Assembly: GCA_038211425.1 (NCBI GenBank)
Contig: JBBQVQ010000001.1
Location: 39,991-103,990 of the forward strand
DNA from: Candidatus Limnocylindria bacterium
Lineage (GTDB): Bacteria > Chloroflexota > Limnocylindria > P2-11E
Length of the DNA: 64,000 nucleotides
Direction of reading: 5' to 3'
This document shows, in pieces, positions 4,193 through 24,736 of the stretch. How positions within the stretch are numbered: position 1 is the first letter of the stretch; the number at the start of each line of letters is the position of its first letter. Position numbers and translations under genes: made by a program. The notes beneath the pieces were generated by a model. It ran no database searches. It had not been told where the DNA came from and worked only from the letters and a program-made list of their open reading frames with translations.

Positions 4193-4546
4193 TTGCCGTA
4201 CAAGAGGACCGATCGGGTCAACTCGCTCCTCCAGCGCGAGCTGGGGACGATCATCAGCGAGGAGCTTCGCGATCCACGGATCAGTTTTCCGACCGTGACG
4301 GCCGTGGAGACCAGTCCGGACCTACGACGCGCACGCGTCTTCGTGAGCGTGCTCGGGGACGACGACGCGGTCGCATCCACCATGACGGCGCTCGAGGATG
4401 CCCGCCAGCATCTGCGGCACGAGATCGGCGAGCGCACCGAGCTGCGCTTCGTTCCCGACCTCAGTTTCGTCGCGGACCGGTCGGCCGCGACCGCCACGCG
4501 CATCGCCGCGCTGCTTCGGGAAGCGACAAAGGGCCGCACGGAGTGA
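4193..4546 (+). CDS. rbfA: ribosome-binding factor A
   Basis: 117 aa with MPYKRTDRVNSLLQRELGTIIS, typical of RbfA. TTG start directly after the infB stop. Confidence 0.85.
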   Translation: MPYKRTDRVNSLLQRELGTIISEELRDPRISFPTVTAVETSPDLRRARVFVSVLGDDDAVASTMTALEDARQHLRHEIGERTELRFVPDLSFVADRSAATATRIAALLREATKGRTE

Positions 4547-5508
4547 ACGAGGTGGTGCGACGCCTGCGCGAGGCGCGGCGGATCGCGATCGTTTCGCACC
4601 GCGATCCGGATGCCGACACGATCGGCTCGGGCATCGCGCTCGGCCTCGCGCTGGAATCGCTCGGCGCGGGCGTCAGCTGGCACTGCGCGGACCCGGTGCC
4701 CGACTCGATCCTGTTCCTCGCGCGCTCGGAGCGATACGTCACCGAACCGCCACCCGATGACGTCGACCTCGTCGTCACCGTCGACTTCGGCGACGCCACG
4801 CGCGCGAAGTTCGCCCTGCCGAGCGGGCCGCCGCTCGTGAACATCGATCACCACGTCTCCAACCCGGGGTTCGGGGAGGCGAACCTGGTCGATCCCACGT
4901 CGGCGGCGACAGCGGAGCTCGTCTCGCGCGTCATCGACGCCCTCGGAGTTCCATGGACCTCAGAGATGGCGACCGCTGCGCTCGTCGGGATCATGACCGA
5001 CACGGGGTCGTTCCAGTTCCCGAACACCGACGGGCGCGCCCTGGCACGCGCCGCACGACTGCGGGCCGCCGGGGCCGATCTGCAGGCGATCACGTACAAC
5101 GTGTTCCGGAACAAGCGCTTCGAGGCGCTGAAGCTGTGGGGGTTCGCGTTCTCGCGCCTGGCGCGCGAGTTCGACGGCGAGCTGGTGTGGACCGAGTTGC
5201 GGTCAGGGGACCTGCGGGAGGCGATGGCGCGCGACGAGGACGCTTCGGGGCTCGTCGAACAGATCGCCCGGAGCAAAGGGATGCGCCTGGCGCTGCTCTT
5301 CACCGAGGTGCCGGAGGGCGTGAAGATCTCGTGTCGGACGTCGGCATCGCCGCCTTCGGTGGATGCGTCCGCGCTGATGGGCCGGTACGCCGGCGGCGGG
5401 CACGCCCGCGCGGCCGGTGCGCTCGTGCTCGGCGATCCCGCGCTGATCCGCGAACAGGTCCTCACCGATGCTCGCGGCGCGCTGGCCGCGGCTCGCGTTC
5501 CGGCCTGA
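4543..5508 (+). CDS. nrnA: DHH-family phosphoesterase NrnA (bifunctional oligoribonuclease/pAp phosphatase)
   Basis: DHH motifs (IVSHRDPDADTIGS, DHH, GGGH) in ORF 4105..5508. The R-rich upstream extension is judged spurious. GTG at 4543 overlaps the rbfA stop as GTGA. Conserved position after rbfA in actinobacterial operons. Confidence 0.8.
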   Translation: MNEVVRRLREARRIAIVSHRDPDADTIGSGIALGLALESLGAGVSWHCADPVPDSILFLARSERYVTEPPPDDVDLVVTVDFGDATRAKFALPSGPPLVNIDHHVSNPGFGEANLVDPTSAATAELVSRVIDALGVPWTSEMATAALVGIMTDTGSFQFPNTDGRALARAARLRAAGADLQAITYNVFRNKRFEALKLWGFAFSRLAREFDGELVWTELRSGDLREAMARDEDASGLVEQIARSKGMRLALLFTEVPEGVKISCRTSASPPSVDASALMGRYAGGGHARAAGALVLGDPALIREQVLTDARGALAAARVPA

Positions 5509-6281
5509 CCCTCCAGCCCACCCCCGAGGGCATCCTTCCCATCGACAAGCCGTCCGGCTGGACGTCGCACGACGTCGTCGCGGTCGCCCGCGGGGTGATC
5601 GGCACGCGGCGCGTCGGGCATGGTGGGACGCTCGACCCGCTCGCAACGGGGCTTCTTCCGTTGCTGGTGGGCCGCGCGACGAAGTCCGCCGAGCTGTTGC
5701 ACGCATCACCGAAGGCGTACGCCGCGGTCGTCCGCTTCGGGTACGAGACGCCGACCGACGATCTGGAAGGCGCTGCGGCGCGCGCCGCGGCGGTGCCCGC
5801 TGGGGACACCGAGTGGCTCGATCAGCGCCTCCGGTCCTTCCGCGGGACCATCACGCAGGTGCCGCCCGACTTCGCAGCGGTAAAGATCGGCGGGAGACCG
5901 GCGTACGCGCGCGCGAGGGCGGGCGAGACGACCGTGCTACGACCGAGGGAGGTCACCGTCGAGCGCCTATCGATCGCGTCATGGCGACCGCCCGACCTGT
6001 TCGTGCTGGTGGTGTGCGGACGGGGCACCTATATCCGGGCGCTCGCGCGCGATATCGGGCGTGCCGCCGGATCCGCGGCCCACCTAGCGTCGCTGCGACG
6101 GCTCGCCGTGGGCGCGCTTGATGCGGCCGCCGCCATCGGCGTAGAGGCCATGCGCGCACGCGGGCGCGACGCTCTATTGACCGGCCTCATACCTGCCGAC
6201 CCGGGTATCGCCGTCCTTGATGACCGCTATCGCACCGAGTCGGCCGATAAACTTCTGGGTGACTGGGGCCAACGACCATGA
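5505..6281 (+). CDS. truB: tRNA pseudouridine(55) synthase TruB
   Basis: Conserved TruB N-terminus GILPIDKPSGWTSHDVV and catalytic core lie in frame, but no ATG/GTG/TTG occurs between the upstream stop and the conserved region. An in-frame CTG at 5505 forms a CTGA overlap with the nrnA stop codon (5506-5508). The proposed CTG start is inferential. Confidence 0.7.
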   Translation: MTLQPTPEGILPIDKPSGWTSHDVVAVARGVIGTRRVGHGGTLDPLATGLLPLLVGRATKSAELLHASPKAYAAVVRFGYETPTDDLEGAAARAAAVPAGDTEWLDQRLRSFRGTITQVPPDFAAVKIGGRPAYARARAGETTVLRPREVTVERLSIASWRPPDLFVLVVCGRGTYIRALARDIGRAAGSAAHLASLRRLAVGALDAAAAIGVEAMRARGRDALLTGLIPADPGIAVLDDRYRTESADKLLGDWGQRP

Positions 6282-7690
6282 TCCTGAAGACCATCGAGCG
6301 CGCGGTCCGCGGGCTGCTCTTCGCCTGGCAGCAGCTATCGCTGGACGCCAAGGCCGTCGGCGGGATCGCGACCGCGAATTGGCTGCTTCTGTTCGCGAAC
6401 CACACGACCGTGGGGGCCGAGCGCGACGTGCCGCTGTGGCAACTGTTCCCGCTCGCGGCCGCGGTCGTCTTCCTCGTTGTGACGGGGACGCTCGCGGTGA
6501 CCTATCCGCTGCGCGACCGACGGCGGGGGCCGGCCTTCACGCCGCGCGCCCGTGCGGTCCACCTCGCCGCGATCGTCACCGCGTTCGTGATCGTTCCGAC
6601 GCTGGCCTCGATCATCCTGCGCGAGACAGGACGGCCATATACCTACATCCACGACGGCGCGCTCATGATCGAGGAGGCGTCACGAAAGCTGCTCGCGGGC
6701 CAGAACCCGTACGTCGCCGACTACCTGGACACGCCCCTCTATTACTGGCCCATGCTGAACAACCCCGCCCTCTACCACCTGACCTATTTCCCGCTGCTCT
6801 TCCTGATAACGGCGCCCTTCGTGTGGGCCTTCGGTCACCTCGGGGCCTTCTGGGACGAGCGGTATCTGTATCTCCCCGCGTTCGTCGCAACGCTCGTGAT
6901 CGTGCTCTTCCTGATCCGGGGCACCGAGCGGCGCCTATCCGCCGTCGCGCTCGTCGGCCTGAACCCCCAGCTGTTTCCCTTCGTCGTGGAAGGCCGCAAC
7001 GACTTCTTCGTATTGCTGTTCCTCTTCGCGGGCATCGCTCTTCTACAGCGCGAGCGGCGCGCGCTCGCGGGCCTCGCCTTCGCCGCGGGCGCGGCGGCCA
7101 AGCTGCACGCGATCTTCATCCTGCCATTCGTGATCGTGTACATGGTCGCCACGAAACGTCCGCGCACCATCCGCGACGCTTGGACCATCCTGTGGCGCCC
7201 ACTGTGGCCGGCCGCCCTGCTGCTCGGAGTGACCTTCCTGCCGTTCCTGCTGAATGATTGGGGCGCCTTCTACGACGATGTCGTGCGATACAACGCCGGA
7301 GGCGCGGCATGGACGTACCCGATCAGCGGCATGGGCTTCTCCGCTCTGCTGCTCTCGCTGGGGGTGATCCCGTACCGGCAGGCCGACTTCCCCTTTGCGG
7401 TGATCGAGATCGCCGTCGCGGCGCCCATCGCGGTGTGGTCCTTGCGCCGGTCATGGCGGACGCCGACGATCCCCATTCTGCTGGGCGGTTACGCCGCGAC
7501 GCTCCTGGTGTTCCTCTTCTTCGGCCGCTACTTCCAAGGTAACTACCTCGGGTACATCCTCGCGGTCGCGACGCCGATCCCCTTCCTGCGCTCGATACCA
7601 CGTAAGCGGTCCCGGGCGGCGCGCCATGCGGCGCGCAGCCGCACCGTCGGCGCCCCCGCCTCCGCGTCACCGCTTCGATCCATCGATTGA
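6278..7690 (+). CDS. polytopic membrane protein, GT-C-like glycosyltransferase (DUF2029 / mannosyltransferase-like)
   Basis: 470 aa with more than 10 predicted TM helices and aromatic-rich loops. ATG overlaps the truB stop (ATGA). The family assignment is tentative. Confidence 0.55.
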   Translation: MILKTIERAVRGLLFAWQQLSLDAKAVGGIATANWLLLFANHTTVGAERDVPLWQLFPLAAAVVFLVVTGTLAVTYPLRDRRRGPAFTPRARAVHLAAIVTAFVIVPTLASIILRETGRPYTYIHDGALMIEEASRKLLAGQNPYVADYLDTPLYYWPMLNNPALYHLTYFPLLFLITAPFVWAFGHLGAFWDERYLYLPAFVATLVIVLFLIRGTERRLSAVALVGLNPQLFPFVVEGRNDFFVLLFLFAGIALLQRERRALAGLAFAAGAAAKLHAIFILPFVIVYMVATKRPRTIRDAWTILWRPLWPAALLLGVTFLPFLLNDWGAFYDDVVRYNAGGAAWTYPISGMGFSALLLSLGVIPYRQADFPFAVIEIAVAAPIAVWSLRRSWRTPTIPILLGGYAATLLVFLFFGRYFQGNYLGYILAVATPIPFLRSIPRKRSRAARHAARSRTVGAPASASPLRSID

Positions 7691-8619
7691 GGTCAGGCAA
7701 ACCCGCCCGGGAGCTGCACGACTTCGCCGGCTGGCCCGATGGCCCCCTGCACCTGGCGATCGGCGTCTTCGACGGTGTGCATCTCGGGCATCGGGCGCTG
7801 ATCTCGCACCTCGCGGCCCAGGCCACCGACGTGGGCGCCGCTCCGATCGCCGCGACATTCGATCCACTGCCCATCCAGGTGGTCGCCCCGGGTGCGCCCG
7901 CGTCGGCATTGTCCTCGGCGCAGGAGCGGACGTGTCTGCTCGCTGAGGCGGGGGCGTCCGCGGTCGTCCTCTTCGGCTTCGACGAGCGCTTCGCATCGCT
8001 GAGCGCGGACGAGTTCGTCGGCGGCGTCGCCGCCGCGGGCGACGTCCGCCGGGTCGTGGTCGGTCCCGACTTCCAGTTCGGCCACGGGCGCGAGGGCGAC
8101 GTCCGGACGCTGGCCAGGCTTGGTGCGGAGATGAGCTTCGAGGTCGAGGTTTTCCCGCCATTCGAGATCGACGGCGTCCCGGTCAGCTCCACGCGCATAC
8201 GCAACTCCCTCGCTGTCGGCGCGGTGGAGGAGGCAGCTCGACTTCTCGGACGCCCGTATGCGGTCGAGGGCGACGTCGTCCATGGCAGCAGCCGCGGGCG
8301 CGGCCTCGGCTTTCCGACCCTGAACATCGCGACGCCGCCGGAGCGCCTTCTGCCGAAGGACGGCATCTACGCGATGCGCGTCATGCTCGACGGGCGCGAG
8401 TACGCGGCGGCCGCGAGCCTCGGCGTCCGTCCCACCTTCGGCGGGGGGCCGAAGGTGCTGGAGGCGCACCTCCTCGATTTCGGGGCCGACGCCTACGGGC
8501 GACGGGCGACGGCAGCCTTCATCCGCTGGCTCCGCGACGAGCGGCACTTCGGGTCGCCCGGGGAGCTCACGGCGCAGATCGCCCGCGACGTCGAAGCGAC
8601 CCGCGCGGCGTTGGCGTAG
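7687..8619 (+). CDS. ribF: bifunctional riboflavin kinase / FMN adenylyltransferase
   Basis: 310 aa with LAIGVFDGVHLGHRALI (FAD-synthetase nucleotidyl-transferase motif) and a C-terminal riboflavin-kinase domain (GFPTLNI..PTFGG..LEAHLLDF). TTG start overlapping the upstream stop (TTGA). Confidence 0.9.
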   Translation: MRSGKPARELHDFAGWPDGPLHLAIGVFDGVHLGHRALISHLAAQATDVGAAPIAATFDPLPIQVVAPGAPASALSSAQERTCLLAEAGASAVVLFGFDERFASLSADEFVGGVAAAGDVRRVVVGPDFQFGHGREGDVRTLARLGAEMSFEVEVFPPFEIDGVPVSSTRIRNSLAVGAVEEAARLLGRPYAVEGDVVHGSSRGRGLGFPTLNIATPPERLLPKDGIYAMRVMLDGREYAAAASLGVRPTFGGGPKVLEAHLLDFGADAYGRRATAAFIRWLRDERHFGSPGELTAQIARDVEATRAALA

Positions 8620-8826
8620 GCCGCCTGCGGCACGACGCCACGGTCGGCTGAAGTTGACGCCGCGCCGGGGTGCCTTGCGTAGGTCGCTGGAGTTGCCTCG
8701 GCGCGCTCCGTGGAGCTGGGGACACGGTCCAGTCCCGTCGCTTTCGCGGCACGCACTGATGGAATACCCTCGCGGTACCGTTCGTTGTGGTTGTAGGAGC
8801 AACTTCTAGCTCATGAGGAGAGACCC

Positions 8827-9801
8827 GTGCCCGCTGTGACCGTTGCCAATCCGCTCGACCTGCCGATCGTCTCGGTGTCCACTGTCGGGGACACCCGGCC
8901 TCGGCCGGTGCGCGGCGTCGTGAGCGCCCTGAAGACATTCGAAGGCGAGGGGTTCCCGGTCCGAAGGCCGTTTCCGGGCATCGATCGCCGGATCGCCGAC
9001 CCGTTCCTCATGCTCGACCAGATGGGGGAGGTCGAGTACGCCCCGGGCGAAGCCAAGGGTGCTCCGGACCACCCGCACCGGGGGTTCGAGACGGTCACGT
9101 ACATGATCGATGGCGCGTTCGAGCACAAGGACTCGACGGGCGGCGGCGGCCTCATCACGAACGGCGCGACGCAGTGGATGACCGCGGGCGCGGGCATCGT
9201 CCACTCCGAGATGCCACCGGAGAAGCTCGTCGCGAGCGGCGGACTCTTCCACGGCGTCCAGCTGTGGGTCAATCTGCCCCGCGCAGAGAAGTGGACGCCC
9301 GCGCGCTACCAGGACATCGACGCGGCTTCGCTCGTGCTCCTGCGTTCTGCCGACGGCGGCGCGCTCATCCGCGTCATCGCCGGCACCCTCGCCGGCCACG
9401 CCGGGCCGGGCGTGACGCACACACCGATCACGTACGCCCACGTGACGCTTCTCCCGGGCGCCCAGCTCGAGACCCCGTGGTCGCCCGACTTCAACGCGCT
9501 CGTCTACGCCCTCGCCGGCTCCGGAACCGTCGGCACCGAGCGGGTCCGCCTGGACTCAGGTCAGCTGGCGGTCTTCGGGCCAGGTGACACCGTCCGCGTC
9601 GACGCGAGCCCGCGTCAGGACGGCCGAACGCCCTCGTTCGACGTCCTCATGCTCGGTGGCCGCCCGATCGGCGAGCCGGTGGTGCAATACGGGCCCTTCG
9701 TGATGAACACGCGGGAGGAGATCCTGCAAGCCATCGCCGACTACCAGAGCGGCCGTATGGGCTCGATCCCCGCCACCCACTTCGGCGCCGGCCCCCGCTG
9801 A
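8827..9801 (+). CDS. pirin family protein (bicupin)
   Basis: 324 aa with HPHRGFETVTYMIDGAFEHKDSTG cupin metal-site motif. GTG start with gaggag RBS 8 nt upstream. Confidence 0.85.
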   Translation: MPAVTVANPLDLPIVSVSTVGDTRPRPVRGVVSALKTFEGEGFPVRRPFPGIDRRIADPFLMLDQMGEVEYAPGEAKGAPDHPHRGFETVTYMIDGAFEHKDSTGGGGLITNGATQWMTAGAGIVHSEMPPEKLVASGGLFHGVQLWVNLPRAEKWTPARYQDIDAASLVLLRSADGGALIRVIAGTLAGHAGPGVTHTPITYAHVTLLPGAQLETPWSPDFNALVYALAGSGTVGTERVRLDSGQLAVFGPGDTVRVDASPRQDGRTPSFDVLMLGGRPIGEPVVQYGPFVMNTREEILQAIADYQSGRMGSIPATHFGAGPR

Positions 9802-10183
9802 GCGCGAACCCGGGGCCTGGACCGAGCCCCCCGTTGCGCGACAAGCGTTCGCGCAAAAGGCCAGCTTCCAAAAGCCTGCCCTCCGGCGAACCAATGTGCA
9901 GTCGTAGACAGCGGCAGCGCGGTTACGGCGTCTTCTGAAGCAGAGCCGAATGGAGCCGCGCCGAGGCGGCTCCAGGGAGGGTGCGCGCCCGCTACGGCGA
10001 CCCGGGTGCGGGCCACTGCAGGATAAAGGCGCGCTCGCACCCGCGGAGCGCCCGCAGGACCCGACGGATCGGCGTGCAGCCCGACCGACGCAAGGCGCCC
10101 CGGCTCGGCGTCGACTTCAGAACTACGCGCCGTTCGACTGCAGCGCTGGCGTGTCGACTCCGGGCCTCGTGCGACGCGTCGGA

Positions 10184-10206
10184 GCGCCGACCTTAGAGGT
10201 CGGCGC
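10184..10206 (-). terminator. 9-bp GC stem-loop 4 nt downstream of the minus-strand SBP stop (candidate terminator, no U-tract)
   Basis: gcgccgacc-ttaga-ggtcggcgc perfect inverted repeat. Located between convergent pirin (+) and SBP (-) genes. Confidence 0.3.
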
Positions 10207-10209
10207 CGA

Positions 10210-11289
10210 CTACTTCTTCACCTTCTGCGCAAAGCTGTTGTCGAAGAGCGCCGCCGTGTCGACCGAGTCCGTTGGCTTCACATTCCCGCAGAGCTTCGGG
10301 TTCGCCTTGCAGTCCTCGACGTTGACCTTCAGGACGTTTTCCACGCCCTTCTGATCGATGACGCCCTCCGCAGAGAGATAACCCTTCGCGGCGTCGAGCG
10401 CCTTCACGTAGACGTCGAGGTCCTCTCCGGTCACGGTCTTCGGCAGCTTGGCCGCGATGTCCTTCGCCGCGTTCGCGGCGATGAAGCGGTCCGCACGGAC
10501 CAGCGCGTTCACGACGCGCTGGACGAGGCCGGGGCTCTTCTGGATGAACTCCTGCGTCGTGACCGCGCCGGTGAACTGGTAGTCACCGCCGAGGAGTTCC
10601 TTGGTGTCCTTCTCGCTGCGGTAGTCCTTCAGCACGAAGCCCTTGCCGGAACCCGCATAGATCGTCACGAACGGGTCGGAGTTCATGCACGCGTCGGCAG
10701 CACCAGAGTCAAGCGCGGCAGCCATCGTGCTCGAACCGCACGCCACGAACGTGTAGTCGCCCTCCTTGAGCCCCGCCTGGAGGAGCGCGTAGGTCGCCAG
10801 AAGGTGGGTGCCGGAGCCCTCGGATGTGCCGCCGACCTTCATACCCCTCAGGTCGGCGACGCTCTTCACCCTGTCCTTCAGGCGACTGGCGACCAGGAGG
10901 GCCACCCCGGGAAGGCGCGCGAACGACGTCACCATCTTCGTCGGCTTCCCCTGTAGCTGCGCTTTGATCGAGTGGTCGAGGGAGTTGCCGGAGAACTGCG
11001 CCGAGCCCGACAGCAGGGCCGCCGCGGCGGCGGTACCCGCCTGCTGGTACTGCAGGTCGACGTCAAGGCTCTCATCTTCGAAATAGCCGAGCGCCTTGGC
11101 GAGGTCCCACGGCAGATAGATGAGCGATGCGGCCGAGCCGACAGCGACGGTGATCTTCGCGCGCTCCGGCTTCGCTGTCACCGCCTCGCCCGATGCGGCC
11201 GCTGGCGCGCCCGCTCCTCCGCCACCCCCGCACGCTGACGACACCAGCACCATCGCGAGCGCCACGCCAAACAGGTCCCGCACCGCCAT
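10210..11289 (-). CDS. ABC transporter substrate-binding lipoprotein, NitT/TauT (SsuA/TauA-like) family
   Basis: Real start taken as MAVRDLFGVALAMVLVSSACGGG (signal peptide plus lipobox-like C) with strong aaggagg RBS. The upstream part of the 599-aa track ORF is judged spurious read-through. Confidence 0.75.
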   Translation of the reverse strand: MAVRDLFGVALAMVLVSSACGGGGGAGAPAAASGEAVTAKPERAKITVAVGSAASLIYLPWDLAKALGYFEDESLDVDLQYQQAGTAAAAALLSGSAQFSGNSLDHSIKAQLQGKPTKMVTSFARLPGVALLVASRLKDRVKSVADLRGMKVGGTSEGSGTHLLATYALLQAGLKEGDYTFVACGSSTMAAALDSGAADACMNSDPFVTIYAGSGKGFVLKDYRSEKDTKELLGGDYQFTGAVTTQEFIQKSPGLVQRVVNALVRADRFIAANAAKDIAAKLPKTVTGEDLDVYVKALDAAKGYLSAEGVIDQKGVENVLKVNVEDCKANPKLCGNVKPTDSVDTAALFDNSFAQKVKK

Positions 11290-11303
11290 ATCCGCCTCCT
11301 TTA

Positions 11304-12083
11304 CTAGCGCTCCCGCCGCGGTTTCCACCGCGAGAAGCGCGCTTCGACGACCTGGAACAGCGCGTCCAGCCCCAGGGCCAGGAACGCGATGATGACGATA
11401 CCGCCGAACACCCCGGTCGAGTCGAAGAACGCCTCGGCGTTCGCGATGCGGCGTCCCATCCCCTCGGTCGAGCCGATGTACTCCGCCACGACGGCGCCGG
11501 CGAAGGCGAATCCGGCACTCGTCCGGAGACTCGCGACGATGGCGCTGAACGCTGCGGGTAGGAGCACCTGGAACGTCACGTCCCGCCGGCGCGCGCCGAG
11601 GACGCGGACGTTGTCGATGAGCGTGCCGTCGACATCCCGCACGGCCGTGAACGTGGCGAAGAACACGATGAAGAACACGAGCGTCACCGCGAGCGCGACC
11701 TTGCTCGCGATGCCAAAACCGAAGGCGAGCACGAATACCGGCGCGAGAACCAGGCGGGGGATCGCATTGAACATCGAGAAGAGCGGATCGAACGCGGAGC
11801 CGAGCAGCTCGTTGCGCGCAAAAACGTAGCCGAGCCCGAGCCCGAAGAGCGTCCCGATGGCGAAGCCGAGGACGGTCTCGAGCAGCGTGATTCCGATGTC
11901 GCGATACGTGCCTGCGTCTTGCAGCCATTCCGCGATACGCGGCACGATGAGCGAAGGGCTCGAGTAGTAGAACTTGTCGAGCGCCCCCGTTTGGACCAGC
12001 GCCTGCCACCCGCCGACAAAGCCGGCGATGACGGCGACCTGGAGCCCGCGCACCAGGAACTGGCGTCGCGCCGCGGCGTTCAT
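11304..12083 (-). CDS. ABC transporter permease (TauC/SsuC-like)
   Basis: Six-TM permease with EAA-like loop. ATG at 12083 overlaps the ATPase stop (ATGA). Confidence 0.75.
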   Translation of the reverse strand: MNAAARRQFLVRGLQVAVIAGFVGGWQALVQTGALDKFYYSSPSLIVPRIAEWLQDAGTYRDIGITLLETVLGFAIGTLFGLGLGYVFARNELLGSAFDPLFSMFNAIPRLVLAPVFVLAFGFGIASKVALAVTLVFFIVFFATFTAVRDVDGTLIDNVRVLGARRRDVTFQVLLPAAFSAIVASLRTSAGFAFAGAVVAEYIGSTEGMGRRIANAEAFFDSTGVFGGIVIIAFLALGLDALFQVVEARFSRWKPRRER

Positions 12084-12916
12084 GGGGCGGCCTGGAGGCT
12101 TCGCTCGTACGACCGCGTCACCTCGTCGCGCAGGTCCGCCCACGCGCGCTCGTACAGCGCGACGAAATCGGGCGCGAAGCGGATGTCCATGACGTTCCGC
12201 GGCCTCGGCAGCCCGACCGGGTAACGCGCCTTGATGCGCCCTGGACTCGCTGTCATCACGACGATCTCGTCCGAAAGGGCGATCGCCTCCTCGAGGTCAT
12301 GCGTGATGAACAAAACGGTCTTTCCCGCGGCCCCCCAGAGACCCAGCAGTTCGTTCTCCATCAGGTTCCGCGTCTGCACGTCGAGAGCGGAGAACGGCTC
12401 GTCCATCAGGAGGACCGCCGGATCCGCGACGAGCGACTGCGCGAGCTGAGCGCGCTTGCGCATCCCGCCCGACAGCTGGTGGGGATAGTTGTCGCCGAAG
12501 GGCGCCAGGCCGACGCGGGCGATCCACTCGCCGACCCGTTCGCGCTGCGCGGCGCCGCTCACGCCGCGAAAGCGCAGCGGCAGCGCGACGTTCTCGCGGA
12601 CCGTGCGCCAGGGGAGCAGGGCGTCGCGCTGGAAGATGAAACCGACGTCGGTGCGGACACCAGCCACACGGGAGCCGCGGAGGATGACCTCGCCGCCCGA
12701 CGCCGGAAGCAGCCCCGACACGAGCGAGACGAGCGTCGACTTGCCGCACCCGGACGGGCCCACGACCGAGACGAAGCGGCCTGCGGGCACCATGAGGTCG
12801 ACGTGCTCGATCGCCACGAAGGGCTTCTTCCCGCCCTGGCCGTAGACCTTCGAAACGCCACGGAGCGCGATGACGACCTCGGGAGCGGGCGGGGCGATGC
12901 CCCGCGGCTCGATCAG
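12080..12916 (-). CDS. ABC transporter ATP-binding protein (SsuB/TauB-like)
   Basis: Walker A GPSGCGKST, signature LSGGMRKR, Walker B LLMDEPFSALD. No canonical start lies upstream of the motifs. An in-frame CTG at 12916 forms a CTGA overlap with the stop of the upstream HMGL-like gene. Confidence 0.7.
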   Translation of the reverse strand: MIEPRGIAPPAPEVVIALRGVSKVYGQGGKKPFVAIEHVDLMVPAGRFVSVVGPSGCGKSTLVSLVSGLLPASGGEVILRGSRVAGVRTDVGFIFQRDALLPWRTVRENVALPLRFRGVSGAAQRERVGEWIARVGLAPFGDNYPHQLSGGMRKRAQLAQSLVADPAVLLMDEPFSALDVQTRNLMENELLGLWGAAGKTVLFITHDLEEAIALSDEIVVMTASPGRIKARYPVGLPRPRNVMDIRFAPDFVALYERAWADLRDEVTRSYERSLQAAP

Positions 12917-13845
12917 CGCGGGGTGGCGGAGGGGACCGCCGCGCGGGCCCGCTCTGCCTTCTTCACGCGACCCGCCGATGGCCGCCCGACAAGGGCCTCC
13001 GCAACGTCCGCGGCGGCGAAGAGCTTCTGCCGATCCAGTCCCGTGGGCAGGCCGGCCTCGTCGAACATATAGGCGACGTCCTCCGTGGCGACGTTGCCCG
13101 TCGCCCCGGGCGCGAACGGACACCCGCCGAGCCCGGCGATCGACGCGTCGAACCGCCGGACGCCCATGCCGGCCGCGGACCAGGCATTCGCGAGGCCAAG
13201 GCCCCGCGTGTCGTGGAAGTGCGCCGCCCATGTCCGCGCGGCGGGCACGCCGCGTAAGAGAAGCTCGAAGAGGTCGCTCACCTGCGCGGGATTGGCGACG
13301 CCGATGGTGTCGGCGATGTCGAGATCGAGTGCTCCTGTCTCCGCGCATCGCTGCGCGATCCGCAGCACCGCGCGCGGCTCCACGCGCCCTGAGTAGGGGC
13401 AGCCGAAGCTCACGGCGATCGCGGCGCGCACGTTCACGCCGTCACGGTCTCCCCTCCGGCACAGCACCGACAGCTCCGAGAGCGAGCTCTCGACGGTCCG
13501 GCGCACGTTCCGCTCGTTGAACGCGTCGGACGCGGCCAGAACGAAGATGAGCTCGCGCAGGCCCGCCGCCGCGGCTCGCTCGTACCCTCGCTCGTTCGCC
13601 ACGAGCGCCACGTAGGAGATCTCTTCCCGGCGAGGCATGGCCGCGACGAGCGCCTCGGCATCGGCGAGCTGGGGCACGAGGTCGGGACGCACGAAGCTCG
13701 TCACCTCGAGCTCTCGCAGCCCGGTGTCGAGCAGCGCCTCGAGGAGGCGCAGCTTCCCTTCCGTATCCACGGGGGTCGACTCGTTCTGAAGGCCGTCGCG
13801 CAGGCCCACCTCCACGATGGTCGTGCCTGCGGCACCGCTTCTCAG
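12913..13845 (-). CDS. hydroxymethylglutaryl-CoA lyase family protein (HMGL-like; possibly citramalyl-CoA lyase type)
   Basis: TIVEVGLRDGLQNE TIM-barrel N-terminal motif, HFHDTRG, and typical C-terminus. A CTG at 13845 forms a CTGA overlap with the CoA-transferase stop. The first ATG is 35 codons further upstream, inside the neighbouring gene. Confidence 0.7.
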   Translation of the reverse strand: MRSGAAGTTIVEVGLRDGLQNESTPVDTEGKLRLLEALLDTGLRELEVTSFVRPDLVPQLADAEALVAAMPRREEISYVALVANERGYERAAAAGLRELIFVLAASDAFNERNVRRTVESSLSELSVLCRRGDRDGVNVRAAIAVSFGCPYSGRVEPRAVLRIAQRCAETGALDLDIADTIGVANPAQVSDLFELLLRGVPAARTWAAHFHDTRGLGLANAWSAAGMGVRRFDASIAGLGGCPFAPGATGNVATEDVAYMFDEAGLPTGLDRQKLFAAADVAEALVGRPSAGRVKKAERARAAVPSATPR

Positions 13846-14993
13846 ATGACCCCCTCCCGCGCGAGGCGGTCGAGCTCGTCGGGCTCGAGCCCGAGCAGCT
13901 CGCCGTACACCGCCGCATTGTCCGTCCCCAGCGTCTCGGGCCCCAGCCAATCCACCCGGCCGGGAGCTTCGGCGAACTTCGGGACGACACCCGGGATCGT
14001 CAGCGACGTGCCATCGCCGAGCGAGCGCTCGAGCAGCATGTCACGCGCCCGGTACTGCGGATCCCCCGTGATATCGGCCATGGAATAGATGGGTCCCGCG
14101 GGAACGCCCGCTGCCTCCAGCGCGACGAGGCACTCACGCAGCGTCAGGCCCCCCGTCCACGCGGCTATCGCCGCGTCGAGGAGTGAAGCGTCCATGGCCC
14201 TCCCGGGATTCGTCCGGTACCGCTCCACTTCGGCGAGATCGGGACGGCCGACGCACGCCATCAGCCGCTTGAACAGCTCGTCACTGTTGCCGCCGACGAC
14301 GACGAAGGCGCCGTCCGCGGTGGGATAGGTGTTCGACGGCGCGACGCCGGGGTAGGCTCCCCCCGAGCGCTCGCGGATCTCCCCCGAGTACACGTACTCG
14401 GTCACCGCTGCCTCCATCAGCGCGAACACCGCCTCGTACAGCGCGACGTCGACCGTGTCGCCGCGGCCGGTGCTTCCGCGACGAAGCAGGCCCGCGAGCG
14501 CGCCGATCACCGCGAAGAGGGCGGCGATCTCGTCCGCGAGCGAGATACCGGTGCGGGAAGGCGGCGCGTGCGGGTCGCCGGTGATGTAGCGGATCCCGCC
14601 CATGGCCTCGGCCACCGCGCCGAGCCCGGGTCGCTGGCGGTACGGGCCCGACTGGCCGAAACCGGATATGCGGACGACCACGAGGTCCGGCCGCTCCCGC
14701 CGCAGCTCGTCGGGACCGAGTCCCCACCGCTCGAGAGTTCCGGGCCGGAAGTTCTCGATCAGCACGTCGCTCTTGGCGACAAGACGTCGCGCCAGCGCCT
14801 GGCCCTCAGGCTTTCGCAGGTCAGCGGTCACGCAGCGCTTGTTGCGGGACTGGACGCGCCACCACAGCGATGTTCCCTCGTGGAGGTGCTTCCAGTCGCG
14901 GAGCGGATCGCCTCTGCCCGGAAGCTCGACCTTGATGACGTCCGCACCGAGGTCGGCGAGGATGCGCCCCGCGAAGGGGCCGGCGATCATCAT
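13842..14993 (-). CDS. CoA-transferase family III (CaiB/BaiF-like); true start lies upstream of 14993
   Basis: 383 aa from the first ATG. The conserved N-terminal element [11 protein letters not shown] (CaiB: PLAGLRVV..IEIAGPFAG) is encoded in frame upstream at 14994-15026. The frame is open to 15107 with no ATG/GTG/TTG/CTG; only ATC codons are available, the most plausible being 15071. Confidence 0.75.
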
Positions 14994-15161
14994 CCCGAGC
15001 TCGATCGCCCGGATGCCCGCGAGGGGACCCGGCGTCTTGGCTCGACTCGCGGCAGTCCCCTGGGCCTCGATGCCGCGATTATGTCCGGTGTCGACGCAGC
15101 GTCCGTTCGGCTAGACTCGCTTCGAAGAAGAGATCCAGAAGGATCCAGGAAAGGACAACGG

Positions 15162-15478: not shown

Positions 15479-17698
<2,220 letters not shown>

Positions 17699-17871
17699 CG
17701 ACGGGCTGGCCGACGCTCTCGCTCATCCTCCCCGCGTACAACGAGGCTCGCCGGCTACCGGCGAGCCTCGCGCATTGCGCCGAGTTCCTTCGCGCGCGAT
17801 CGCTCGAGGCCGAGATCATCGTCGTCGACGACGGCTCGACCGACGGCACGGGCGCGGCGTTCGCGGACACG

Positions 17872-18483
17872 GTGGCCACCCTTCCCCAGGCCCACCTCGC
17901 CTACCGGCTGCTCCCGATGCCGCACGCGGGAAAGGGGGGGGCCGTGCGCGCGGGGGTCGCGGCCGCGATCGGCGATCCGATCGTCTTCCTCGACGCCGAC
18001 CTCACGATCCCGGTCGAGAGCATCGACATGTTCATCGAGGCGCTGGCGGGAGGCGCCGACATCGCCGTCGCTTCGCGCTACGTCAAGGGTGCGGTCGTCG
18101 AGCGGCCCTGGTGGCGCGTATTCATGGGCGTCGTCTTCCACACCTGCGTCCACCTCATCGTTCCGGTCGATGTGAACGACACTCAGTGCGGCGGTAAGGC
18201 ATACACGGCCGAGGCCGCGAAGTACCTCTTCCGCACCTCGCGCCTGGACGGCTTCGCATTCGACGCCGAGGTGATCTTCCTCGCCCGGAGGGAGGGATAC
18301 CGCGTGGCGGAGCTGCCGGTCGAACTGCGGCAGCGCGGGGAGACGAGCATCGACTTCCTCGCGGACACCCTCCGCATGCTTCGCGATCTCGTGCTGATCC
18401 GGTTCAACGCCGCCACGGGGCGCTACGAAAGGCTCCGGCAACCGGCTCCGTCGCCGAGGCCGAGTCTCGGGCCGGGTGAGTGA
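17872..18483 (+). CDS. GT2-family glycosyltransferase (polyprenol-phosphate sugar transferase / DPM1- or HpnI-like); N-terminus extends upstream
   Basis: 17872 is the first canonical start (GTG). The same frame is open from 17620 and encodes the GT2 hallmarks LSLILPAYNE (about 17716-17745) and VVDDGSTDGT (about 17821-17850) upstream of it. The real start is therefore between 17620 and about 17725 and is non-canonical or unresolved. Confidence 0.7.
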   Translation: MATLPQAHLAYRLLPMPHAGKGGAVRAGVAAAIGDPIVFLDADLTIPVESIDMFIEALAGGADIAVASRYVKGAVVERPWWRVFMGVVFHTCVHLIVPVDVNDTQCGGKAYTAEAAKYLFRTSRLDGFAFDAEVIFLARREGYRVAELPVELRQRGETSIDFLADTLRMLRDLVLIRFNAATGRYERLRQPAPSPRPSLGPGE

Positions 18484-18647
18484 GCGCGCTCCGGGGGGAC
18501 TTCGGCCCCAGAGACCCCCGAGTGGCGTCCGGAGAAGTGCGCACGCCTCCGCGGTCCGCCGTCGATCTCGGCGCATCCCCGGAATGAAGGCGACCCCCGC
18601 TGCATGAGGCTTCTCGCAGCCCCTCCGACCACGGCCCCTCGGGGCCC

Positions 18648-19454
18648 CTGGTCGTCACCGCTGACGACCTGGGCTTCTCGGGAGCGGTGACGCGGGGCAT
18701 CCTCGCCGCGTACCGGAACGGCATCGTACGGTCGGCTTCGCTGCTGGTGACGTTTCCGGGGAGCGCCGAGGCGGCCGCGCTGGCCGTGCGCGAAAGCGGC
18801 CTCGAGGTGGGTTTGCACCTCGACCTTGTGGGGGGGCGGCCGGCGACCGATCCATCGGCGGTGCGCAGCATCGTTGACGGTGATGGCCGCTTTCATCCAC
18901 TCGGCGCGTTCGTGCGCAGGCTCGTCACCGGGCGTGTGCGCGCCGGCGAGATCGCGACGGAGGTGCGCGCGCAGGCGATGCGGGCGCGGTCGTTCGGGAT
19001 CGCCCCACTCGCGTGGGATTCACACCGGCATGTGCACCTGATCCCCTTCATCGCGCGCGTCGTGGGCGGGGTGGCCAGGGACGAAGGCGTGCGCTGGCTG
19101 CGGCGGGGCCGGTCGCCCGACGTCGCGCGAGGCTGGAAGCCACGGGCGCTGTCGGTGTCGACGGTCGCGAGCGAGAGATTCTTCGGCGGCATCCCCGGCA
19201 ACGATTGGTACCTCGATCTGTCGTCGTGGCGCCCGCGGCCCGGTCCCGCGGCACTCGGGCTCCTGGCGAGGGCGCCCGGCTCGGGCGAGCTCGGCTGCCA
19301 TCCCGGCCAGCTCGACGACGGGCCGGACGCGGGCGACGCGCTCGCGCCCCAGCGCGTGGCGGAGCTCGCCATGCTCACTGAACCAGCGCTGCGGGCGGCG
19401 CTCGCTCACCAGGTCGGCTGGCGCGTCCCGGCGCGCTCGGCGCGCGGGGGCTGA
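18648..19454 (+). CDS. YdjC/ChbG/HpnK-family carbohydrate deacetylase
   Basis: Conserved N-terminus LVVTADDLGFS..GI..A...G.V.S.SL (YdjC: LIVNADDFG) begins at CTG 18648. The first GTG is at 18687 and the frame is open from 18588. Confidence 0.7.
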   Translation: MVVTADDLGFSGAVTRGILAAYRNGIVRSASLLVTFPGSAEAAALAVRESGLEVGLHLDLVGGRPATDPSAVRSIVDGDGRFHPLGAFVRRLVTGRVRAGEIATEVRAQAMRARSFGIAPLAWDSHRHVHLIPFIARVVGGVARDEGVRWLRRGRSPDVARGWKPRALSVSTVASERFFGGIPGNDWYLDLSSWRPRPGPAALGLLARAPGSGELGCHPGQLDDGPDAGDALAPQRVAELAMLTEPALRAALAHQVGWRVPARSARGG

Positions 19455-20125
19455 TGCCGGGATCGACGACCAGCGGGGCGCTGCGCGATGCCCTCGAGCG
19501 CTACCGTCAGGCGCGTTTCGACACGCGCTGGCTGGTCCACGGTCGCGCCTTCCTGTCGGACCTGCCGTTCGTCGAACAATACGTTCCGCGCCACGGTTTC
19601 ATCGTGGACCTGGGCTGCGGCCAGGGCCTGTTCAGCAACCTGCTCAAGGAGGTATCGCCGCAGCGCCGCGTGCTGGGGATCGACGTCGATGCGAGCAAGA
19701 TCGAGATCGCCAGACGGACGATCCAGGGTCGGGAGGGCCTGCGCTTCGAGGTCGGCGACATCACGGCAGCTCCGCCGCCGCGCTGCGACGCGATCGTCAT
19801 CGTGGACGTCCTGTATCTCCTGCCCTCCGAGGCGCAGGAGGCCGTCCTGCGGAACTCCGCAACAGCGCTGTCGGAGAACGCACCGGTCGTCGTGAAGGCC
19901 CAGGAGAGATCGGTCGGGCCGAAGTACGCACTCACCTTCGCGCAGGAGATGATGAGCGTCGCCCTGGGCTTCACGCGGGGTGGCCACGGCCTGCATTTCC
20001 CCTCGCGCGGCGAGGCGCTCGACCTCTTTGGACGCAGCGGGCTGCTCGCGCACGTCGTCGAAATGCGCCGCCGCCCGTACACCGACGTGGTGTATCTGGC
20101 GCGAAAAGCGCCGCGGGTCGGGTAG
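19454..20125 (+). CDS. class I SAM-dependent methyltransferase
   Basis: VDLGCGQG motif I, acidic post-I residue, IVIVDVLYLL motif. ATG overlapping the upstream stop. Confidence 0.8.
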   Translation: MPGSTTSGALRDALERYRQARFDTRWLVHGRAFLSDLPFVEQYVPRHGFIVDLGCGQGLFSNLLKEVSPQRRVLGIDVDASKIEIARRTIQGREGLRFEVGDITAAPPPRCDAIVIVDVLYLLPSEAQEAVLRNSATALSENAPVVVKAQERSVGPKYALTFAQEMMSVALGFTRGGHGLHFPSRGEALDLFGRSGLLAHVVEMRRRPYTDVVYLARKAPRVG

Positions 20126-22445: not shown

Positions 22446-24736
22446 GGAAGACCACCGACCGTACGGCGGTGCGCCGGGCAGCCCGCCCCCGCCAGGGCGG
22501 GCTCGAGACCGGCGTTCGCGGTGAGATCGTCGGCATCGCCCTCCTGGTGTTCGCCCTCCTGACGGCGGTCGCCCTGGTCGCCGACCAGGGCGCTCTCCTG
22601 CACTGGTGGCGCGCCTCGCTCTTCTCGATCCTGGGTTGGGGAGCGGTGCTCGTGCCGCCCGCGCTCGCGCTCGTGGGAGCCGCTGTGGCGTTCCCGTCGC
22701 TCCGGCCCGGCCTGGTGGCTCCCGCGGCCGCGGGAGCCGTACTCCTGGTCGCGGTCCTCGGACTGCTCGAGGTCGCCGTCCGGAGCGAGCCGGGGTCGCC
22801 CCCCGGCGGTATGGCCGGCCGGCTCCTCGGCGGCTCGGCGCGCGGGGCGCTGGGAGACGTGGGCGCCGCGCTGCTGCTCATGGCCATCGCCCTCATCGCC
22901 CTCGTCGTGGCGTCGGGCCGATCCGTCGGGGACCTGGCCGGGTCGGTCGCGGGCCTCGCCAGGTCGGGCGCGGATCTCGTGCGGTCCGCAGTGCTGCGGC
23001 GGCGTCGCTTCGCGCTGCGGCCGGGCGCGATGTTGCCCGGAGGCACCGCAGCGGCGCTGGCCGCCGGACTCGCGAAGAGCGATGCTGCCGCGGGCGCCGG
23101 CGCGTACGTGGCCGCGGATGATGGCGCCGACCCGCCCCTGCGCATCAACCTTCAGGAGGCGCGCGCCGCTCGGCCGGTCACCCCGCCCCCTGTCGCGGCC
23201 GCCACGATCGCGCCGCCCCCTCCCGCGGCGGCCCTCGGTCCCGCCGGCCTCGCCTCGGCCGCGGTCGCGGCCGAAGGCGTCCTGCACGCGACCGCCGACC
23301 GCGCATGGGCGCTGCCCTCGATCGACCTCCTCGAGGAGGGCTCCGCTTCGCGGTCAGGGAGGGACGAGGTCATGCGCAACACGCGCGTGATCGAGGAGAC
23401 GCTGCTGCACTTCAACATCGTCGCCAAGGTCGTCGAGGTCAGCGTCGGTCCGGTCGTGACCCGGTACGAGCTGAAGCCGGCGGCGGGGGTGAAGCTCTCG
23501 CGCATCGAGGCACTTTCGGACGACCTGTCCCTTGCGCTCGCCGCGCGGAGCCTGCGCATCGAGGCTCCCGTGCCGGGAAAGAGCGTCGTCGGCATCGAGA
23601 TCCCCAACCTGGCCATCGGCCTGGTCTCGCTGCGGGACGTCGCCGAGACTGCGACATTCGGCGATGCGACGAGCACCCTTACCGTCGCGTGCGGACGCGA
23701 CGTCGCAGGATCGCCGATCGTTCTCGACCTCGCCAAGCTGCCGCACCTGCTCGTTGCCGGCCAGACCGGCTCAGGCAAGAGCGTCTGCATCTCCTCGATG
23801 ATCTGCAGCCTCCTGATGAACGCGACGCCGGACCGCGTGCGGCTGCTCATCGGCGACCTCAAGCGCGTGGACTTCACCGGATTCAGCGGCCTCCCGCACC
23901 TGGTCGTGCCGATCATGACCGAGCACGACAAGATCCTGAACGCGCTGTACTGGGTGACGGGGGAGATGGATCGCCGATACCGTCTCTTCGCCCGTGCGAG
24001 CGCGCGCAACATCGCGGGCTACAACGAGTCGCGGACCGGTCCCGACCAGATCCCGTACGTCGTCTTCATCATCGACGAGCTCGCCGATCTGATGCTCCAG
24101 GCGCCGATCCTGGTGGAGAAGCAGATCACCCGCGTCGCGCAGCTCGCGCGGGCGACGGGGATCCACCTCGTCCTGGGAACGCAGCGGCCCTCGGTGGATG
24201 TCATCACCGGCCTCATCAAGGCGAACATACCCGCACGCATCGCCTTCGCGACAGCGTCTTCGATCGACTCGCGGACGATCCTCGACATGACCGGCGCGGA
24301 GAAGCTCCTCGGCCGCGGGGACATGCTCGTCCTGCCCCCGGACAAGGCGAAGCCGATACGTGCGCAAGGGGTCTACGTCTCGGACCGGGACATCGGCGCG
24401 GTGAGCGCGCACTGGAAGGCCCAGGGCGGCCTCGACCCGCATCCCGAGGTCCTCGAGGATCCCGACAAGGGCGCGGGATGGCGGGACGATGGGGGCGACG
24501 GTGACATCGACGATGCCCGATACGAGGAGGCGGTGGAGATCGTGAAGCGCGCGGGGCAGGCGTCGGTGTCGATGCTGCAGCGGAAGATGACCGTCGGCTT
24601 CGCGCGCGCCGGGAGGCTCATCGATGTGATGGAGCAGCACGGCGTCATCGGGCCGGCGCAGGGCCCGGGCAAGATGCGCGAGGTGTATGGCGGGGCGCCT
24701 CCTCGCCGCCCGGCCGGCGACGACGTCGACGCCTGA
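22442..24736 (+). CDS. ftsK: DNA translocase FtsK/SpoIIIE
   Basis: N-terminal TM helices, A/P-rich linker, motor domain GQTGSGKSV and gamma-domain. GTG overlapping the rnj stop. Confidence 0.92.
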   Translation: MRKTTDRTAVRRAARPRQGGLETGVRGEIVGIALLVFALLTAVALVADQGALLHWWRASLFSILGWGAVLVPPALALVGAAVAFPSLRPGLVAPAAAGAVLLVAVLGLLEVAVRSEPGSPPGGMAGRLLGGSARGALGDVGAALLLMAIALIALVVASGRSVGDLAGSVAGLARSGADLVRSAVLRRRRFALRPGAMLPGGTAAALAAGLAKSDAAAGAGAYVAADDGADPPLRINLQEARAARPVTPPPVAAATIAPPPPAAALGPAGLASAAVAAEGVLHATADRAWALPSIDLLEEGSASRSGRDEVMRNTRVIEETLLHFNIVAKVVEVSVGPVVTRYELKPAAGVKLSRIEALSDDLSLALAARSLRIEAPVPGKSVVGIEIPNLAIGLVSLRDVAETATFGDATSTLTVACGRDVAGSPIVLDLAKLPHLLVAGQTGSGKSVCISSMICSLLMNATPDRVRLLIGDLKRVDFTGFSGLPHLVVPIMTEHDKILNALYWVTGEMDRRYRLFARASARNIAGYNESRTGPDQIPYVVFIIDELADLMLQAPILVEKQITRVAQLARATGIHLVLGTQRPSVDVITGLIKANIPARIAFATASSIDSRTILDMTGAEKLLGRGDMLVLPPDKAKPIRAQGVYVSDRDIGAVSAHWKAQGGLDPHPEVLEDPDKGAGWRDDGGDGDIDDARYEEAVEIVKRAGQASVSMLQRKMTVGFARAGRLIDVMEQHGVIGPAQGPGKMREVYGGAPPRRPAGDDVDA

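Follow-up and report, generated by a model that had tools for sequence, protein, structure and literature searches.

Candidate CTG start codons at three stop/start overlaps in a Limnocylindria-like Chloroflexota genome

Genes and junctions at the locus

The start codons of three genes were analyzed in a stretch of 64,000 nucleotides (nt; the whole stretch is called the window here) from Candidatus Limnocylindria bacterium, an uncultured soil Chloroflexota. The genes are truB, an HMG-CoA lyase-like gene (HMGL) and the ATPase gene of a NitT/TauT-type ABC transporter (ABC), and for each of them the proposed start is a CTG that overlaps the upstream gene's stop codon. The window has a G+C content of 70%, with 88% G+C and 48% C at third codon positions, and the best matches of its proteins are named after uncultured Chloroflexota, several of them after "Candidatus Limnocylindria".

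On the forward strand, an nrnA-like gene (4543-5508), which itself starts in a GTGA overlap with rbfA, ends with GCC-TGA at 5508, and its TGA (5506-5508) overlaps a CTG (5505-5507) in the frame of truB, which from this codon encodes 258 aa (5505-6281). The other two junctions follow one another on the reverse strand. The gene of a family III CoA-transferase (13842-14993 from its first ATG) ends with ATC-TGA at 13842, and this TGA (13844-13842) overlaps the CTG at 13843-13845 in the HMGL frame (12913-13845, 310 aa from the CTG); HMGL in turn ends with CGC-TGA at 12913, and its TGA (12915-12913) overlaps the CTG at 12914-12916 in the ABC frame (12080-12916, 278 aa from the CTG). The three in-frame CTGA junctions reported by a sequence-only reading of the window are all present, at 5505-5508 on the forward strand and at 13845-13842 and 12916-12913 on the reverse strand, and the gene identities it gave agree with Pfam, which finds DHH and DHHA1 in nrnA, TruB_N and TruB_C_2 in truB, CoA_transf_3, HMGL-like and ABC_tran. 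The canonical 4-nt overlaps that it cited also exist (GTGA at 4543, ATGA at 6278, TTGA at 7687), among 13 such starts in the window.

TruB matches TruB_N at 8e-44 and contains both the catalytic GHxGTLDP motif with its Asp and the N-terminal G(I/V)LxxDKPxGxTSHD strand, while HMGL matches its Pfam family at 4e-48 from residue 9 and contains the N-terminal EVGxRDGLQNE motif. In the ABC protein, the ABC_tran domain has a Walker A motif preceded by the beta-1/A-loop strand, and the homologue names from JGI agree with this assignment. Its closest solved homologues are ATPases of nitrate/bicarbonate transporters (NrtD/CmpD structures at 1e-47), and the neighbouring genes encode a BPD_transp_1 permease and an NMT1 binding protein.

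For truB, the junction was compared in six genomes (the window, L004, L005, L006, L007 and L017), which share 77-95% nt identity and fall into about four lineages at 77-84% in truB DNA. L004 and L011 belong to the sister metagenome-assembled genome GCA_030774595.1, L017 to GCA_046262615.1 and L015/L016 to GCA_028876375.1. A scan of metagenomes with HMGL gave three loci, two of them useful, and N-terminus lengths were compared with 120 homologues per family. Among the matches listed for a TruB scan of genome contigs there was only an unrelated Rhodothermales locus. Exact look-up gave no match for the GT-C protein, and none in the collection for CTG- or ATC-started versions of the window proteins. 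Assembly error was rejected at all three junctions: the HMGL/ABC region is matched without indels by two independent metagenome assemblies from different sequencing runs (L001, 99.68% over 4414 nt; L002, 100%), with 14 mismatches, none in a CTG, and the truB junction was found again in five further assemblies.

The sequence-only reading had also held that no ATG, GTG or TTG exists from the upstream in-frame stop to the conserved region. It turned out that all three downstream frames remain open far into the upstream genes and hold canonical codons there: GTG 5331 (5331-5333, within nrnA and 58 codons before the CTG) and three others in the truB frame, TTG 13950 (35 codons before the CTG) in the HMGL frame, and GTG 13123 (69 codons before the CTG) and two ATGs in the ABC frame. 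The HMGL frame also holds GTG 13815 and GTG 13809 within TIVEVGLRDG. A narrower claim is true of truB and ABC, which have zero canonical starts from the stop of the upstream gene to the conserved N-terminus. This N-terminus was said to follow the CTG by 8-14 residues, which is right for truB and HMGL (8 each) but not for ABC (17).

Translation could in principle begin at the codons inside the upstream genes (GTG 5331, TTG 13950 and GTG 13123), giving overlaps of 105-207 nt and long N-terminal extensions. GTG 5331 is present in five genomes and has a GGAGGG 13 nt upstream in the window. However, the extensions score like off-frame sequence, at -0.5 to -0.9 bit/codon (range -0.48 to -0.89, with -0.56 from GTG 5331 and -0.48 from GTG 13123), and they would carry the N-termini far beyond the length range of homologues. 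The synonymous sites of nrnA are equally variable in the putative overlap (39 of 58 third positions variable) and further upstream (64 of 122 and 71 of 120), and there is an in-frame stop within the equivalent HMGL extension of L011. Besides, the GGAGGG represents Pro-Glu-Gly codons and reads GGGGGG in L004, L005 and L007 (Pro-Gly-Gly, inferred from translation). We consider upstream starts very unlikely and rejected GTG 5331 as the start of truB.

The number of CTGA junctions is not informative by itself. Of the window's 35 TGA stops, 17 have a C before them, and 4% of codons are CTG, so a CTGA with a nearby in-frame CTG is expected by chance; the earlier argument from "three independent occurrences" carries no statistical weight, as half of the TGA stops follow C. 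A single synonymous change in the last codon of the upstream gene is also enough to turn a GTGA or ATGA overlap into CTGA. What exceeds chance is that the downstream genes are without a usable canonical start and that the CTGs lie at or next to the start position of their orthologues.

Start positions in related genomes

At the nrnA-truB junction, all six genomes read GCC TGA / CTG ACC. The C-terminus of nrnA (...AAARVPA before the stop) is kept in all of them, its last codon GCC together with TGA giving CTGA, and no genome of the six has an ATG, GTG or TTG ahead of the conserved GILPIDKP strand. In a 65% relative (L013/L014), the same position reads GCG TGA / GTG ACC CTG GCC, which is an ordinary GTGA overlap, and the change between this GTG and the CTG of the window does not alter the Ala at the end of nrnA (GCG/GCC). 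The window TruB, LTLQPTPEGILPIDKP, aligns with P0026, MTLAPNGVLPIDKP, whose start is a GTGA overlap, and more distant TruB proteins (60-65% identity) have about 253-255 aa and begin M(T/I)xxPxGVLPIDKP. Counted from the CTG, 37 residues precede GHxGTLDP, and the mode of the homologues is 35. The match to M. tuberculosis TruB (1sgv, 4e-49) runs from residue 6 of the CTG-started protein and chain residue 4.

Automatic gene callers assume instead that each gene starts at the next canonical codon downstream (GTG 5595, 13815 and 12817) and encodes a shortened protein. Deposited gene calls of this form exist for the source contig and for L001, with 300 aa for HMGL and 245 aa for ABC, and calls for truB relatives are truncated as well (P0002-P0004): the closest TruB records have 204-232 aa from an internal GTG or ATG, or 246 aa from an ATC. 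For truB, a start at GTG 5595 (5595-5597), 30 codons in, would cost GILPIDKPSGWTSHDVVAVARG and with it a conserved part of the protein, the first strand and helix, on which purifying selection acts. In two relatives, the first canonical codon lies even further inside, 75 codons in for L004 and 54 for L006, which is past GHGGTLDP and the catalytic Asp. Codon usage from the CTG to GTG 5595 (codons 1-30) is coding-like (+0.53 bit/codon). Summed over pairs, synonymous and nonsynonymous codon differences are 31:28 in codons 1-9, 63:45 in codons 9-30 and 944:572 in the rest; the pattern just past the CTG thus resembles that of the remaining gene and indicates that these first codons are translated. 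The deposited gene calls of GCA_046262615.1 (L017) start truB at this very CTG and give 258 aa. We rejected GTG 5595 as the truB start. The comparison of the six genomes demonstrates that the CTG state is old and that truB, by its substitution pattern, is still under purifying selection, and it argues strongly for non-canonical initiation of this gene.

A different arrangement was seen in L015/L016, in which truB directly follows rbfA (position 10001). The called GTG start gives MDKASGW there, yet immediately 5' of it the frame encodes the conserved GVLAV strand, and between the rbfA stop and this strand no canonical start occurs. This may be another unconventional start of truB.

For ABC, L011 has a GTGA overlap and L017 an ATGA overlap, and in the alignment their GTG and ATG fall exactly on the CTG of the window. 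The junction reads GCG GTG AAC GAG CCG in L011 and GCG CTG ATC GAG CCG in the window, a G-to-C difference that leaves the Arg of HMGL unchanged (CGG to CGC). The aligned starts are followed by (I/N)-E/D-P, and L017 has the ATGA at the same place, with a longer unrelated spacer before IALRGVSK. P0121, from GCA_030774595.1, is 93% identical and has 278 aa, the same length as the CTG-started window protein; its N-terminus is MNEPRNGMPPVPEIVIALRGVSKVYG, compared with (L)IEPRGIAPPAPEVVIALRGVSKVYG in the window. The downstream GTG 12817 (12815-12817), which is the gene call on record, would drop the LRGVSKVYG strand, which we take to carry the A-loop aromatic residue, and would leave 19 residues before Walker A, compared with 41-42 in 76 of the 120 homologues. 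Codon usage is coding-like, at +0.54 bit/codon in codons 1-15 and +0.64 from the CTG to GTG 12817, and we rejected this GTG as the ABC start. These alignments give good support to a non-canonical, presumably CTG, start of ABC. In a second close genome, ABC is called from an internal GTG (P0361), which suggests that this genome is also without a canonical start at the junction.

For HMGL, the start of the relatives is one codon past the CTG: L008, L011 and L017 read CAT CTG ATG, and L009 reads CTA GTG. The CTG is present in L008, L011 and L017 too, because the CoA-transferase ends with ATC-TGA. P0362, from the same 90%-identity cluster, begins MSGGGAVTVVEVG, and in the window an AGA (13842-13840) stands for this ATG, at the position of the ATG or GTG of relatives. 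An indel pair was considered as the source of the AGA and discarded, as P0362, the closer relative, shows a plain substitution of ATG. Upstream of the CTG lies a Shine-Dalgarno (SD)-like GGGAGGGGG (13850-13858, reverse strand), with its GGAGG core 7 nt 5' of the CTG. With an anti-SD duplex energy of -11.2 kcal/mol, it pairs more strongly than any other site tested in the window, and the counterpart in L011 and L017 is GGGAGGGCG. The match to B. subtilis 1ydo (5e-68) runs from query residue 8 and chain residue 7 onward, and solved homologues match from residue 8-9. CTG-ATG (a TGATG 1-nt overlap), the former arrangement of HMGL, occurs at two more CTGA junctions on the forward strand (19451-19456 and 24733-24738).

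In this gene, the downstream codon is a genuine rival and a live alternative, as a start at GTG 13815 (13813-13815) costs only about 10 residues. The 10 codons between the CTG and this GTG are too few to score (-0.03 bit/codon). On the other hand, GTG 13815 has no SD (-2.6 kcal/mol) and leaves 3 residues before G.RDG.Q, whereas the CTG leaves 13 and 94 of the 120 homologues have 9-13. Non-canonical initiation of HMGL is moderately supported by these comparisons. Over the three genes together, we think it distinctly unlikely that translation starts at the downstream GTGs.

By these alignments, the three CTG states are shown to derive from ordinary overlap starts (GTGA, ATGA and TGATG) by point substitutions. 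In truB and ABC, GTGA or ATGA became CTGA when the third position of the upstream gene's last codon changed without altering the amino acid (GCG to GCC, Ala; CGG to CGC, Arg). In HMGL, the ATG of the CTG-ATG arrangement became AGA, leaving the CTG that is made by the upstream ATC-TGA. The sequence-only reading had named a start of the orthologues at the first downstream GTG or ATG as grounds against CTG initiation; the orthologues do not start there, as truB and ABC orthologues start at the CTG position and HMGL orthologues at the next codon. Its core inference, of non-canonical and probably CTG initiation, withstands this check, while the arguments that it gave were weak or wrong.

A programmed -1 frameshift could join each upstream protein to the downstream one (NrnA-TruB, for example) and make a start codon unnecessary, and at each of the three junctions the downstream frame is indeed -1 to the upstream one. 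However, the last 30 codons of nrnA, of the CoA-transferase gene and of HMGL contain no slippery heptamer of the form X_XXY_YYZ, relatives carry ordinary start codons at the junction, and truB of L015 follows rbfA instead of nrnA. The probability that we assign to such fusion is practically negligible.

Probable initiation at the CTG codons

On balance, it seems probable that the three genes are intact, have lost their ancestral overlap start and now initiate at the CTG in its place (truB and ABC) or at the CTG one codon upstream of it (HMGL). The fMet-tRNA would read CUG with a first-position mismatch, which is the same class of mismatch as with GUG and UUG. At truB and ABC, a ribosome that terminates on the overlapping UGA could re-initiate in place (termination-reinitiation coupling). 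The SD energies at these two CTGs are -1.7 kcal/mol (truB) and +1.5 kcal/mol (ABC), and those of the canonical overlap starts in the window mostly fall between -1.7 and -5 kcal/mol, apart from one start with +0.3 and another with -9.9. Re-initiation would be the natural route at truB and ABC because there is no SD there, as at most canonical overlap starts. At HMGL, the strong SD-like sequence 7 nt upstream could recruit ribosomes directly. The expected expression is low, probably a few percent of that from an AUG start. Generally, translational coupling at the CTGA junctions is plausible. If the CTGs are the starts, the N-terminal peptides expected are (M)TLQPTPEGILPIDK and, for ABC, (M)IEPR...

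CTG starts belong to translation table 11. Regulatory non-canonical starts such as the AUU/AUA of infC and the AUU of pcnB are deeply conserved and tied to IF3 autoregulation. The genes studied here resemble them in that a weak start codon would set low translation of a housekeeping gene, and differ in that two of the three CTG states arose at the species level, sister genomes having canonical starts there, so that drift is as good an explanation as regulation.

Bacterial CTG initiation is documented for Deinococcus-Thermus rpsL, where it is conserved, and for E. coli plasmid RepA, and the HPPK gene Deide_03051 is also among CTG-initiated bacterial genes (PMC2830850). Like those genes, the three genes have a near-cognate CTG where the conserved N-terminus needs a start, the codon is kept among related genomes, and it was recognized by locus alignment after gene callers had truncated the protein. 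Unlike rpsL, which is backed by peptides, the CTG starts here are proposed from sequence comparison, and unlike the genes in that study, the CTGs overlap an upstream stop, derive recently from GTGA or ATGA and affect several neighbouring genes. Termination-reinitiation coupling at 4-nt (ATGA/GTGA) and 1-nt (TGATG) overlaps is established (Huber et al. 2019, PMC6728339; PMC10666635; PMC12548453). The junctions here are similar in their same-strand stop/start overlap, in the general lack of an SD at such starts in the window and in their ancestral GTGA, ATGA and TGATG arrangements, but their start member is CTG, and CTG or CUG as an overlap start has no mention in two of these coupling studies (PMC12548453, PMC10666635). 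Among the papers searched, none ties Limnocylindria to start codons. In E. coli, with all 64 codons measured, CUG, AUC, AUU and AUA form a near-cognate tier; relative to AUG, CUG initiated at about 1-2% when carried on a high-expression plasmid and, together with AUH, at 0.02-3% in a single-copy construct, values that were obtained with E. coli reporters with a strong SD and represent neither re-initiation nor Chloroflexota (Hecht et al., bioRxiv 10.1101/063800).

Several observations weigh against the proposed CTG starts. The start losses of HMGL and ABC are recent, at the species level, and the old HMGL start codon has changed from ATG to AGA by two substitutions. Of the HMGL differences to L001 (99.7%), 3 are nonsynonymous and 4 synonymous, whereas every difference in the neighbouring genes is synonymous. 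From these three points together decay is possible, and HMGL may be a shortened or decaying gene. The dapF gene (see below) contains an in-frame TAG, so this genome appears to tolerate defects. In ABC codons 1-17, there are 1 synonymous and 7 nonsynonymous differences from L011, spread evenly over codon positions; the N-terminal tail therefore appears unconstrained, and initiation of ABC at ATC 12913, 12898 or 12871 is possible. In GCA_030774595.1, the truB call uses an ATC (codon 12) and not the CTG. The C of GCC-TGA, although kept in six genomes, is by itself weak evidence (roughly a one-in-three chance per site), as about one third of nrnA third positions are invariant in five of the genomes of the truB set. 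As for coupling, an overlap is probably not required for a CTG start, as the probable CTG start of the YdjC gene (18648) lies 165 nt from the nearest stop.

The recent losses could mean that the CTGs are mutational scars, that HMGL, ABC and maybe others are being lost or are essentially unexpressed, and that the geometry reflects ancestry only. The losses are indeed limited to the species of the window, with canonical starts in the sisters L011 and L017, and the AGA codon, the nonsynonymous changes in HMGL and the TAG in dapF all fit such decay. This cannot easily account for truB, whose CTG state is kept in about four lineages with coding-type substitutions, nor for three intact frames with normal codon usage and zero frameshifts or stops. 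Besides, ABC has zero differences to L001, and the calls of the genome with P0361 likewise have no canonical start at the junction, so the loss is no one-off. We judge decay of this kind rather unlikely.

Another near-cognate codon, chiefly ATC, could serve as the start in place of CTG (5532 or 5541 in truB; 12913, 12898 or 12871 in ABC; 13818 in HMGL). ATC calls are on record for truB in GCA_030774595.1 and for the GT2 glycosyltransferase and CoA-transferase genes in GCA_046262615.1, ABC codons 1-15 seem unconstrained, a start at ATC 12871 would place Walker A after 37 residues, a spacing found in 4 of the 120 homologues, and initiation from AUC and CUG is similarly low in E. coli (10.1101/063800). 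However, the CTGs match the orthologous canonical start positions, and the codons between CTGs and ATCs have coding-like usage and substitutions. Among the near-cognates in truB codons 0-9, only the CTG is kept in all genomes checked, and neither truB ATC is, as the ATC at codon 9 reads GTC in L004 and that at codon 12 reads GTC in L005. An ATC start seems quite unlikely to us.

Other genes without canonical starts and what they may mean

To place the three genes in the window, the first canonical start was compared with the start of the first Pfam domain in about 55 stop-to-stop open reading frames. The first canonical start falls inside the domain in six genes only (truB, HMGL, ABC, CoA-transferase, GT2 and YdjC), all of which lie within 5.5-19.5 kb (about 16 genes). 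None of the about 40 other genes of the window (19.5-64 kb) has such a start, and this clustering was recognized post hoc. The apparent starts are CTG in truB, HMGL, ABC and YdjC, ATC in the CoA-transferase gene, and ACG or ATC in GT2. Several of these non-canonical states are common to three to six related genomes, and two of them are not at overlaps.

In the CoA-transferase gene (13842-15110, reverse strand), ATG 14993 corresponds to profile position 11 and would cost a conserved N-terminal stretch, the domain begins 10 residues upstream, and the near-cognates upstream are ATC codons only. L011 and L017 both keep ATC 15071, and the deposited call of L017 begins there (409 aa); the more distant L008 and L009 have an ATG start (MTGWGPLAG...). 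Directly 5' of the ATC lies GGACATAATCGCGGC (15072-15086, reverse strand), which is conserved in all five loci, and L008 and L009 have the same motif just before the ATG, with CC between. The CATAAT in this motif, 6-8 nt from the start, could be a -10-like element, and the transcript would then be leaderless. A sigma-70 promoter at this CATAAT was not supported, as a scan for the two-hexamer consensus found none.

The GT2 glycosyltransferase gene (17695-18483, forward strand) follows pnp, whose stop is TAG 17696-17698, and has relatives in L011 (4273-5075), L012 (4326-5100) and L017 (5352-6155), all on the reverse strand. From the pnp stop to the essential LSLILPAYNE there is zero ATG, GTG, TTG or CTG, and likewise in the three relatives. 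A canonical start is first reached at GTG 17872, 50 residues past the beginning of the Pfam domain. In the window, no NUG or AUH codon lies ahead of the motif, and the only codons available there are ACG 17713 and ATC 17725. An in-frame stop lies 3 codons (L012) and 6 codons (L017) before LSLILPAYNE, and the codon preceding LSLILP is ACG in the window, L011 and L017 and ATC in L012. The calls on record use an ATC (ILPAYNE) in L017 and a CTG further in for L011. In the YdjC gene (18588-19454, forward strand), the first canonical codon, GTG 18687, lies inside the Pfam domain, 13 residues in, and a start there would cost LVVTADDLGFSGA. CTG 18648 corresponds to profile position 2 and is also present in L011 and L017, while L012 has a GTGA overlap start two codons earlier and a CTC at this codon.

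Non-canonical starts on record amount to 3 of 18 genes in L017 (CTG for truB, ATC for GT2 and CoA-transferase), together with the GT2 CTG in L011 and the truB ATC in L004. The calls for the contig of the window and for the Logan contigs use ATG, GTG and TTG only, and the proteins are truncated. Further along the window, dapF (54476-55229, reverse strand) has a GTGA overlap on the miaA stop and an in-frame TAG at 55069-55067 (..GDRDDRV, the stop, then DWRIHNADGS..), which splits the DAP_epimerase domain, with profile positions 1-49 before the stop and the rest after it. This gene could be a pseudogene, contain a consensus error or be read through. There are no tRNA genes in the window, and infC is also not in it.

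CTG initiation looks unusually frequent in this lineage. The choice of start codons may be relaxed across this Limnocylindria-like Chloroflexota clade, with the three CTGs as part of it, but we hold this to be rather less likely than not, because it comes from one 15-kb stretch with post hoc clustering and because dapF has an in-frame TAG. If it is true, initiation fidelity (IF3 or the anticodon stem of the initiator tRNA) would differ in the clade, standard callers would truncate a noticeable share of its proteins, and the clade would be a natural system for the study of start-codon stringency across bacterial phyla.

In conclusion, CTG initiation is a known but uncommon phenomenon to which these genes are added cases, and the truB CTG is already in the gene calls of a relative. 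Callers that accept only ATG, GTG and TTG shorten the proteins: TruB to 204-232 aa instead of 258, ABC to a form without the A-loop strand and HMGL to one without part of strand 1, and such truncated sequences spread into protein databases for an abundant, uncultured soil class. The loci show step by step how a change at a stop/start overlap that is synonymous in the upstream gene can destroy the start codon of the downstream gene. The CTGA state of truB persists across lineages that are only 77-84% identical in truB DNA, and therefore CUG, probably aided by re-initiation, would give these bacteria enough TruB.

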